NCBI GenBank assembly: GCA_016839265.1
Contig: JAEOUO010000002.1
Coordinates: 60,001-92,000 of the forward strand
Length of the DNA stretch: 32,000 nucleotides
Source of the DNA: Candidatus Odinarchaeota archaeon
Lineage (GTDB): Archaea; Asgardarchaeota; Odinarchaeia; Odinarchaeales; Odinarchaeaceae
Direction: 5' to 3'
The notes under the pieces are model-generated. The model saw nothing but the letters and a program-made list of their open reading frames with translations. It did not search any database and was not told the DNA's origin. Positions 12,732-14,163 of the stretch are shown here, in pieces. The position numbers and the translations under genes were made by a program. The stretch's first letter is position 1. Every line of letters starts with the position of its first letter.

Positions 12732-13286
12732 TTGAATCACACATATAGCTTTAAAATTCTTTTACTAGGGGACCCCGCGGTTGGTAAAACATCACTCATC
12801 CACAGATTTATTCAAAACAGTTTTAACAGCGATTATAAAGCAACTATAGGTGTTGATATCATGAGTAAAACACTTCAAATAAACGAGGTCACGGTGAAAC
12901 TTTCATTATGGGATATTGCCGGACAGGATAAATTCCGACTTTTCAGAAATGTTTTTTACAGAGGCGCTTCAGCCGCCATCATCGTGTTTGATTTAACAAG
13001 AATTTCTTCTTTTAACAATTTAAATAACTGGGTTAACGAGCTTCATATGTATGTTAATGTTAAAATACCTTTCATTATTATAGGTAATAAATTAGACTTA
13101 GACTATATGAGAAATGTTGAGAGAGAGGCCGCTTTAAAATATTCTGAGGGATTAAGATCACCTTATTTAGAGACAAGCGCGAAAACAGGTAAAGGTGTAA
13201 ACGAGTGTTTCACCGCTATTTCAAGACAGTTACTTAAAGAAGCTTTAACCTCTACCCGCCACTTTGAAAACACTATATATAGTTAA
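12732..13286 (+). CDS. Rab-like small GTPase (Ras superfamily)
   Basis: G1 GDPAVGKTS, G2 YKATIG, G3 WDIAGQDKF, G4 NKLD, G5 ETSAK. RabF-like IGVDI, KLSLW, FYRGA, IVFDLT. No C-terminal Cys prenylation motif. GAGGT RBS. Confidence 0.95.
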   Translation: MNHTYSFKILLLGDPAVGKTSLIHRFIQNSFNSDYKATIGVDIMSKTLQINEVTVKLSLWDIAGQDKFRLFRNVFYRGASAAIIVFDLTRISSFNNLNNWVNELHMYVNVKIPFIIIGNKLDLDYMRNVEREAALKYSEGLRSPYLETSAKTGKGVNECFTAISRQLLKEALTSTRHFENTIYS

Positions 13287-13339
13287 ATTAATATTTTTTA
13301 ACATGTTATATTTATTTAAAAAGAATCGAGGAATCTATT

Positions 13340-13783
13340 TTGAAACTTGTAGAGTTGACTAGTAAAGTTGTAGATTGTCTCAAAAAATCATCTAAACCAC
13401 TATCTGCAGTTGAAATCACCCGTAAAATAAATTTGCCTATTGAAAAGAAGAGACGGATTTACGATGTCTTAGACGTGTTAGAAGTTTTAAATATGATAAA
13501 AATCTCTAGACGCGGTAATGAAAAACTAGCTCAATGGTTTTCGGCGGAGAAAACTGTTTTAAAAGAGTCTTTAACTGTTGAGAAAAAATTGGAAGATAAA
13601 CCTCACTGCGTGGTTAATGTTGATCTTGTTTTTCCCTCATCTGATTACAAGAATCTGAGTAATCAAACCTGGCAGGAAATGATGGTTAGGGATGTTAAAA
13701 GAAATATTAAAGGTTTATTAGATATAATTGTAAATGATATTAAATTAATGGAGGCTAAGAGAGTTTTAGCCACCAGTCAATGA
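13340..13783 (+). CDS. E2F/DP-like winged-helix DNA-binding protein
   Basis: KKRRIYDVLDVLEVLNMIK (RRIYD at 13451-13465) followed by QW, matching the E2F/DP signature RRxYDxxNVL...W. The N-terminal LVELTSKVVDCL fits helix 1. GAGGA RBS. Confidence 0.75.
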   Translation: MKLVELTSKVVDCLKKSSKPLSAVEITRKINLPIEKKRRIYDVLDVLEVLNMIKISRRGNEKLAQWFSAEKTVLKESLTVEKKLEDKPHCVVNVDLVFPSSDYKNLSNQTWQEMMVRDVKRNIKGLLDIIVNDIKLMEAKRVLATSQ

Positions 13784-13788
13784 AAAAA

Positions 13789-14163
13789 CTAGCTTTTATC
13801 ATCTGCTAATATTTTGGATATATCAGTTTCCTCTTTTCCCCTTCTCTTAATTTTAATTTCAGGTCCGCGTCCTTCTATTCTTCTTTCTAAAAGCATTATA
13901 TCTGTCTTAGATATTTTAGATTGAAGCCCATACTGGTTGACGATCATTATAAGTATATCCTCTATCTGCGCTGCTACCGCTGGTTTTAACTTATATATTT
14001 CGTTAAGATAGTTTAACGCGTCTTCTTCGCAGATCAATCTGAAGAATTTATCTTTCTCATGTTTCAGCTTCTCCCGGTATTCTTTTAATTTAACCTGTTC
14101 ATTGATTTTTTGAATCATTTCTTTCATTTTCTTAAGTCTTATACGCTCCAATTCATCCATCAC
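13789..14163 (-). CDS. PDCD5-like (double-stranded DNA-binding protein family), divergent member
   Basis: DELERIRLKKMKEM N-terminus, ALNYL...KPAVAAQIEDILI, KIS, C-terminal EIKIKRR; the overall PDCD5 pattern is present. Confidence 0.72.
   Translation of the reverse strand: MMDELERIRLKKMKEMIQKINEQVKLKEYREKLKHEKDKFFRLICEEDALNYLNEIYKLKPAVAAQIEDILIMIVNQYGLQSKISKTDIMLLERRIEGRGPEIKIKRRGKEETDISKILADDKS

Follow-up and report, generated by a model that had tools for sequence, protein, structure and literature searches.

An E2F/DP-family winged-helix protein of Odinarchaeia and Hermodarchaeia with a C-terminal module predicted to homodimerise

The DNA analysed here is a stretch of 32,000 nucleotides from a Candidatus Odinarchaeota genome (GenBank assembly GCA_016839265.1, contig JAEOUO010000002.1, positions 60,001 to 92,000 of the forward strand), hereafter called the window as a whole. 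We focused on a short gene that follows a Ras/Rab-like small GTPase gene and faces a PDCD5-like gene tail to tail, and that a preliminary description, made from the letters, had read as an archaeal E2F/DP-like transcription factor. The assignment of its product to the E2F/DP winged-helix family is secure at the level of sequence profiles. In our reading, to which we give a probability of roughly 0.65, the protein is a sequence-specific DNA-binding homodimer of the E2F/DP family and most likely a transcriptional regulator, representing an Odin/Hermod subtype of the Asgard homologues that have been described.

Family membership of the E2F/DP-like protein

The open reading frame (ORF) was found as described, with the peptides LVELTSKVVDCLKK, AVEITRKI, KKRRIYDVLDVLEVLNMIK and AQWF all in the 147-amino-acid (aa) translation and an Asp in place of the eukaryotic Asn (YDVLDVL vs YDxxNVL). 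Because its orthologues in three other Odinarchaeia genomes have 73-84% identity, the same range as the neighbouring genes, and because a ribosome-binding site precedes the start codon, the ORF is a real gene under constraint. The published gene call gives an rbs_motif of GGAG/GAGG and a spacer of 5-10 bp (Eme et al. 2023, PMC10307638). In six-frame translation, the genome to which the window belongs (97.3% complete) has one E2F_TDP match at E <= 1, so that the family is present as a single copy.

Pfam E2F_TDP (PF02319) matched the protein with 35.9 bits (6.4e-09; gathering cut-off 25.7). The rival winged helix-turn-helix (wHTH) families remained under their own cut-offs, with TFIIE_beta at 15.8 bits (cut-off 28.1), WH_Rok at 15.6 and TrmB (PF01978) at 13.1 (cut-off 25.6); the profiles thus favour E2F_TDP over the TrmB-, ArsR- and TFE-type families. 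No NCBIfam model matched the 147-aa protein. Searched exhaustively with phmmer, 1.8 billion representatives contained only five relatives at E <= 0.001, and the five distant homologues P0006-P0010 each exceed the E2F_TDP cut-off, with 31.5-48.4 bits. When the subfamily profile was compared with 177,635 distinct PDB sequences, only four matches were obtained at E <= 10, the top three being E2F4 (8.5e-06, over the whole domain), E2F8 (1.9e-05) and DP2 (0.0038); TrmB, TFIIE, MarR and ArsR families were not among them. The E2F4 DNA-binding domain (DBD) aligned end to end with residues 3-68.

The RRIYD of E2F4 and E2F8 and the RRVYD of DP2 align with the KRRIYD motif of the window protein. All 22 Odin/Hermod-type sequences have K37, R38, R39, Y41, D42, V43, V46, L47 and W66 in common, and R38, R39, Y41 and D42 are also invariant in 25 mixed Asgard sequences and in 91 sequences of a longer Asgard form (see below), so the RRxYD motif is conserved among the archaeal homologues. 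The family claim of the preliminary description, an E2F/DP-type winged helix with RRxYD and a Trp in the wing, is therefore upheld by the Pfam score, the invariant residues and the PDB profile matches. Its view that E2F-like and DP-like features are mixed holds for a few residues, whereas the profile leans towards E2F4 (28.9 bits) rather than DP2 (20.3 bits). The RRxYD motif contacts bases in the E2F4-DP2-DNA structure 1CF7. The base-contact residues have been reported as conserved in Asgard E2F/DP homologues (Eme et al. 2023, PMC10307638).

The AlphaFold2 (AF2) model has a winged helix with a predicted local distance difference test (pLDDT) score of 84-93, composed of helices 3-16, 23-29 and 34-49 and strands 53-58 and 61-66. 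Structure searches with this winged helix (Foldseek against PDB and AFDB-SwissProt; VIA-align wide) matched dozens of other, unrelated wHTH families about equally well, and E2F4 did not stand out; with the long form as query it ranked only 18th. Since the fold cannot separate the wHTH families, we relied on the sequence profiles.

That the protein is an E2F/DP homologue has been published: its exact sequence stands in the table of E2F/DP sequences among the ESP, as Odinarchaeia_J65_bin_29, 73340-73783, start TTG (Eme et al. 2023, Nature 618:992, PMC10307638, supplementary file 5), and these coordinates fit the offset of the window (60001 + 13339 on contig 2). The same table holds the orthologue of Ca. 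Odinarchaeum yellowstonii LCB_4 and 17 Hermod-type sequences, under arCOG02749 (PMC10307638); the NCBI name of the LCB_4 orthologue is 'E2F family transcription factor'. E2F/DP homologues were found across most Asgard groups (Supplementary section 4.1.5, PMC10307638), the eukaryotic E2F and DP proteins were proposed to be duplications of an Asgard-inherited homologue (Eme et al. 2023, PMC10307638), and a 2024 review lists E2F homologues as present in Asgard genomes (PMC7617429). As the exact protein is in a published list, the headline claim of the preliminary description adds nothing new. No biochemical characterisation of any archaeal E2F/DP member was found in the literature searched. What is added here beyond the published work is modest: a subfamily module predicted to homodimerise, a conserved gene pair and a DNA word upstream of orc1/cdc6.

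Table 1. Positions in the window of the E2F/DP-like gene, its parts and its immediate neighbours.
Feature	Position	Strand	Basis and remarks
E2F/DP-like gene	13340..13783	+	147 aa, TTG start, TGA stop; ORF list and translation
GAGG ribosome-binding site	13328..13331	+	8 nt 5' of the TTG start; read in the sequence
AT-rich TATA-like stretch	13308..13322	+	inside the 53-bp gap 3' of the GTPase gene; read in the sequence
Winged-helix DNA-binding domain, E2F_TDP family	13340..13546	+	residues 1-69; Pfam over residues 3-55, AF2 model, PDB profile matches
RRxYD recognition-helix motif (K37-R38-R39-I40-Y41-D42-V43)	13448..13468	+	conserved; aligns with E2F4, E2F8 and DP2
Trp66 in the wing	13535..13537	+	invariant in the 22-sequence alignment; aligns with the W of E2F4 (IQWKG) and DP2 (IKWIG)
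Variable linker	13547..13606	+	residues 70-89; monomer pLDDT 33-41; poorly conserved, length varies (22-sequence alignment)
C-terminal module, specific to the Odin/Hermod subfamily	13607..13756	+	residues ~90-139; strand, helix with RDxKR, strand; predicted homodimer interface
PDCD5-like dsDNA-binding gene (PF01984)	13789..14163	-	Pfam dsDNA_bind, 37.4 bits; convergent, 5 bp between the 3' ends
Ras/Rab-like small GTPase gene	12732..13286	+	Pfam Ras, 178.5 bits; co-directional, 53 bp upstream of the E2F-like gene

The C-terminal module and the predicted homodimer

The C-terminal module is conserved between Odinarchaeia and Hermodarchaeia, at about 26% overall identity, and its residues L106, M114, R117, D118, K120, R121 and L136 do not vary across the 22 sequences. 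The remark that the C-terminal ~70 residues are unlike the coiled-coil/marked-box (CC-MB) region agrees with all comparisons made. Pfam gave no match for residues 80-147 at E <= 10, hhalign of the module against a small eukaryotic CC-MB alignment gave E 0.58 over 6 columns, and hhalign against the tail of the long form detected no relation. Relatives of the module were not found in the PDB profile search or among ESM Atlas features (two orthologues), and a coiled coil was not seen in the AF2 model of the 147-aa protein. As for a pocket-binding or transactivation region, the chain ends at residue 147, a few residues past the conserved module, and no family matched the tail.

A complex prediction with two copies of the protein scored 0.48 (0.44-0.49 across runs), and three controls scored 0.00-0.01. 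Among proteins of solved structure, 20 of 30 homo-pairs and 1 of 23 single chains attained the mark of 0.48; these counts apply only approximately because a custom alignment was used. The runs had at least 71% of contacts in common, with a partner pLDDT of at least 67. The predicted interface is confined to residues 87-139, where strand 91-98 lies against both the same strand and strand 125-139 of the partner. In these models, the C-terminal module probably holds the homodimer together with intertwined strands.

The homodimer that had been proposed from the sequence is supported, at the level of modelling, by the controlled complex prediction (0.48 vs 0.01) and by the single family gene. The pairing as such is predicted, but through the module (87-139) and not through an E2F-DP-like contact of the winged helices. 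Asgard E2F/DP proteins were stated to be without a dimerisation domain (Eme et al. 2023, PMC10307638); a module that is predicted to dimerise would qualify this statement for Asgard E2F/DP, which is possibly a new point.

Subfamilies, gene neighbourhood and candidate DNA targets

To describe the distribution of the family, E2F_TDP (PF02319) was searched in six frames and was above the cut-off in 136 of 400 Asgard genomes, representing 40 of 85 genera, and in none of 14 control genomes. Another archaeal phylum, that of a metagenome-assembled genome (MAG) labelled Bathyarchaeota, had two carriers among 401 genomes. These are L037/G400:C8:9577-9765 (a short form, 50.3 bits) and G407, and they reflect either rare presence outside Asgard, transfer or mis-binning. 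In a partial protein of 301 aa labelled Candidatus Dadabacteria (P0112), the first half of an E2F_TDP domain of the Asgard short form is fused to a membrane-transporter-like region (PF01758/PF13593) at a contig end; this protein is probably an assembly or binning chimera.

The Asgard E2F-like proteins have at least three layouts, i.e., long, short and Odin/Hermod. The long form is the commonest, with about 165-190 aa comprising a winged helix, a heptad-rich helix and a beta-rich tail, and occurs in Thor-, Hel-, Jord-, Baldr- and other Asgard classes; the short form has about 120 aa and no coiled coil. A model of one long form (P0026, m181c0befe8d7; 91 sequences; mean pLDDT 82) has the winged helix, a helix at 74-115, four strands within 132-165 and a terminal helix. 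When it was compared with AlphaFold DB clusters, most named matches after two Asgard entries were eukaryotic E2F-family models, aligned over residues ~1-171 (E 2e-05 to 1e-03, TM score 0.30-0.43, high root-mean-square deviation), and an ESM Atlas search agreed with these matches to full-length E2F models. No sequence-level match of the long form to E2F_CC-MB was obtained, and when its tail was sought among solved CC-MB structures, the PDB sequence and Foldseek/VIA match lists were occupied by the winged helix. The long form thus resembles eukaryotic E2F in architecture, as a likeness between predicted models and not a demonstrated homology, because a sequence-level match to E2F_CC-MB was lacking.

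The Odin/Hermod form and the long form have only the winged helix in common (hhalign 98.9%, 69 columns). A sister family of Odinarchaeia has both the Odin-type and the long form, and the window's genus and the Hermod genomes have only the Odin/Hermod form. In one sister-family genome (G298), a long-form gene of 193 aa with winged helix, coiled coil and beta tail (L052:1172-1753, minus strand) lies beside the Odin-type copy.

In a tree of 67 domain columns, the Odin/Hermod type formed a clan of its own (support 100/97). The eukaryotes in this tree were three ciliate E2Fs and one atypical E2F; it contained no DP sequences, and DP2 reached only about 19-20 bits, far below significance in large databases. 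The mutual order of the three clans (Odin/Hermod, long forms and eukaryotes) was not resolved in the 67-column tree. An approximately unbiased (AU) test on eukaryotes and Odin/Hermod as one clan gave p = 0.04 and was not relied on, as the group was named post hoc and the short Asgard form clings to the eukaryotes. The preliminary description had cast the protein as similar to a pre-duplication ancestor. This part was not supported. The protein belongs to the divergent Odin/Hermod paralogue, and it is the long form that aligns end to end with E2F models; the window protein is better described as a derived, divergent Odin/Hermod paralogue than as an ancestral form.

The E2F-like and PDCD5-like genes stand tail to tail in Odinarchaeia and also in 14 Hermodarchaeia-type loci that have conserved none of the other neighbours from the window. 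The PDCD5-like gene was not seen beside long-form genes within the 1.5-kb flanks examined. At positions 13781-13797 of the window, a minus-strand T6 run directly past the PDCD5-like stop overlaps with the E2F-like stop codon; probably the convergent transcripts run into each other or have a terminator region in common. The GTPase gene lies upstream of the E2F-like gene in four Odinarchaeia loci (L033-L036) and is absent from another (L032) and from the Hermod loci; it is context and not an obligatory partner. At L032:4556-5000 (isolate RPA3), no Rab-like GTPase gene lies between the CENP-N-like and E2F-like genes, which are separated by a 445-bp gap. An own promoter of the E2F-like gene is plausible because this locus keeps the E2F-like gene without the GTPase gene, and the AT-rich stretch in the 53-bp gap (Table 1) is a possible candidate for it.

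Among the DNA words considered as targets, a TGGCGC upstream of orc1/cdc6 is conserved in seven Odinarchaeia genomes. In all four genomes of the window's genus, a conserved block of ~35 bp lies upstream of the main orc1/cdc6, with the invariant core AAGCGCCA (reverse complement TGGCGCTT) at about -153; in the window's own genome it lies outside the window, on G000 contig 1 at about 509,690-509,740 (L061:445-485). The DNA around the block has 23-28% GC and is otherwise diverged. In the sister family (L065:330-470, L066 and L067), the region upstream of orc1/cdc6 contains TTTGGCGCG, a perfect E2F word, in 3/3 genomes, GGCGCC with inverted TTCACA/TGTGAA arms also in 3/3, and GCGCCAA in 2/3. TGAAT follows two of the sister-family elements, and likewise the reverse complement of the block in the window's genus. 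We regard orc1/cdc6 as a lead only for a target of the E2F-like protein, suggested by the resemblance of these words.

Archaeal replication origins usually lie near orc1/cdc6, in the AT-rich upstream region. The block sits in a 438-bp stretch of 21-25% GC upstream of orc1/cdc6, which is probably a replication origin. A second conserved block, TATAGTAAATCTTTAATAAT, is promoter-like and lies nearer the orc1/cdc6 start.

Other candidate sites were set aside. Nine of the ten intergenic TGGCGC sites had the look of tRNA or other RNA genes or did not contain the composite word TGGCGC-N2-8-TGAAW. Upstream of one ftsZ, AAAGCGCCATA occurs in the window's genome and not in its three congeners, and the sister-family matches look coding (ATGGCGCC at the likely start). 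A GC-rich island of ~120 nt with TGGCGCTATGAAC, located between AT-rich flanks outside the window (G000 contig 2, about 116,000-116,130; L076:900-1030), resembles an unannotated gene for a structured RNA more than it does an operator.

Interpretation and comparison with known systems

In the mechanism we propose, each chain would carry one E2F-type winged helix, with KRRIYD in a long recognition helix and the conserved Trp in the wing. The motif reads the G/C core of the site in E2F4-DP2 and E2F8, and KRRIYD may do so here. A flexible linker of ~20 residues would join the winged helix to the strand-helix-strand module, whose strands, intertwined between two chains, would form the homodimer, and the homodimer would offer two identical E2F-type heads to two GC-core half-sites. 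Since each chain has one domain and each genome one gene, it would take two chains to match the two heads of E2F-DP or E2F8. Such a homodimer may stand in for both the E2F-DP heterodimer and the coiled-coil/marked-box, in a regulator without an Rb-type or transactivation region. The comparisons establish the family, the conserved motif, the single copy, the division into subfamilies and the synteny. The fold and the homodimer are predicted by modelling, and what is known of the family suggests that the protein binds DNA, is specific for a GC core and acts as a regulator.

A number of observations count against this proposal. With respect to the protein, the C-terminal module has a pLDDT of only 60-75 in the monomer model and a fold without assignment, and the dimer model has no confident contact between the winged helices, so the spacing of the half-sites is not predictable. 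The DNA specificity may differ from that of the eukaryotic proteins because the Asn of YDxxNVL is Asp here and its position varies across Asgard homologues. The N-terminal arm of E2F4 is absent, since the window protein begins at helix 1. With respect to the DNA, the palindromic GC-core site put forward in the preliminary description is putative, and E2F words were not enriched in intergenic sequence, with TTTSSCGC found 6 times vs 6.1 expected and GGCGCC 5 times vs 4.4 (expectations from uniform or shuffled sequence). TTSSCGC, GCGCGC and SGCGCS were likewise not enriched in intergenic DNA, and a surplus of short SSCGC/CGCG words stems probably from unmasked RNA genes. The composite word occurs once in intergenic DNA genome-wide, so no regulon is visible, and the element upstream of orc1/cdc6 may just as well be an Orc1 box or the operator of another factor, because the region is expected to hold a replication origin. 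Evidence of autoregulation was also lacking, with no GC-core word in the 48-bp region upstream of the GTPase gene or the 53-bp region upstream of the E2F-like gene.

Some of these observations suit a different function. The protein could be a structural or replication-linked DNA-bound factor, a homodimer sitting at a few GC-core elements near the origin upstream of orc1/cdc6, perhaps together with the PDCD5-like protein, and serving origin or chromatin organisation. The only conserved intergenic TGGCGC element found is indeed in the AT-rich region upstream of orc1/cdc6, there is no motif enrichment on the scale of a regulon, and the convergent arrangement with the PDCD5-like gene is found in both Odinarchaeia and Hermodarchaeia, whose E2F-like proteins have ~26% identity, with other synteny lost. 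However, all characterised E2F/DP members are, to our knowledge, transcription factors, convergent genes are not an operon and their adjacency alone is weak evidence of joint function, and the link between the protein and the orc1 element is a resemblance of words. We therefore consider a replication-linked role unlikely, though a real possibility.

A second alternative concerns the oligomeric state, with the protein acting as a monomer or with an unrecognised partner, the C-terminal module binding a ligand or another protein, and the homodimer being a modelling artefact. The complex score is the model's own confidence, and one of the 23 single-chain proteins reached the same mark; the module has no known relatives hinting at its role; and E2F7/8 (4YO2) work without DP, with two domains in one chain. 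Against this, the controls stayed at 0.00-0.01 vs 0.44-0.49 for the protein, with contacts consistent across runs, and the window protein has only one domain and is encoded by one gene in the genome, whereas every E2F/DP site that we know of is read by two domains. We find this alternative quite improbable.

That the protein is a generic wHTH regulator (TrmB, MarR or ArsR type) with a chance RRxYD, or a recent arrival from a eukaryote, is hardly credible, because although structure searches give many unrelated wHTH families at similar scores and some Asgard homologues reach the TrmB cut-off too (P0010, 27.5 bits), the generic reading is effectively refuted by the profiles (E2F_TDP 35.9 vs TrmB 13.1 bits, with E2F4, E2F8 and DP2 as the top three of four PDB matches) and by a motif that is invariant across deep divergence, and the presence in 40 of 85 Asgard genera, several architectures of their own and stable synteny argue against recent transfer.

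The preferred reading remains that of a DNA-binding E2F/DP-family homodimer with a regulatory role. A broader scenario would be that the Odin/Hermod paralogue swapped an ancestral coiled-coil/marked-box-like region for an undescribed homodimerisation module and binds TGGCGC upstream of orc1/cdc6, such that an E2F-to-initiator circuit would predate eukaryotes; we consider this speculative and improbable. E2F/DP proteins and Rb drive the G1/S transition in eukaryotes, and their origin is part of the question of eukaryogenesis. If true, the conserved TGGCGC block at orc1/cdc6 as a target would parallel the eukaryotic E2F control of ORC1/CDC6, and a 147-aa protein of a thermophile with one gene per genome is a convenient test object.

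Compared with the Asgard set of Eme et al., the analysis distinguishes an Odin/Hermod subtype, with a conserved module predicted to homodimerise, from a long subtype with a coiled coil and a beta domain. The long-form Asgard E2F-like proteins have a homologous winged helix and differ from the window protein by a 42-residue helix and four strands after the DBD. With eukaryotic E2F1-6 and DP1-2 (PF02319; 1CF7) the window protein shares the winged-helix DBD, including the RRxYD motif of helix 3 and the wing Trp. Unlike them, it has no coiled-coil/marked-box (PF16421/PF08781), no Rb-pocket or transactivation tail, no DP partner gene and no N-terminal arm, carries Asp for the Asn of YDxxNVL, has a wing that is three residues longer, and is predicted to dimerise through an unrelated module on a flexible linker. 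E2F7, E2F8 and DEL (4YO2) likewise lack DP and the coiled-coil/marked-box, features that they have in common with the window protein, and use two E2F-type domains per site; in PDB sequence searches, E2F8 came first with the single protein as query and also with the long-form profile. E2F7/8 carry these two domains in tandem on one chain, whereas the window protein has one, and its pairing is predicted to come about through the homodimer.

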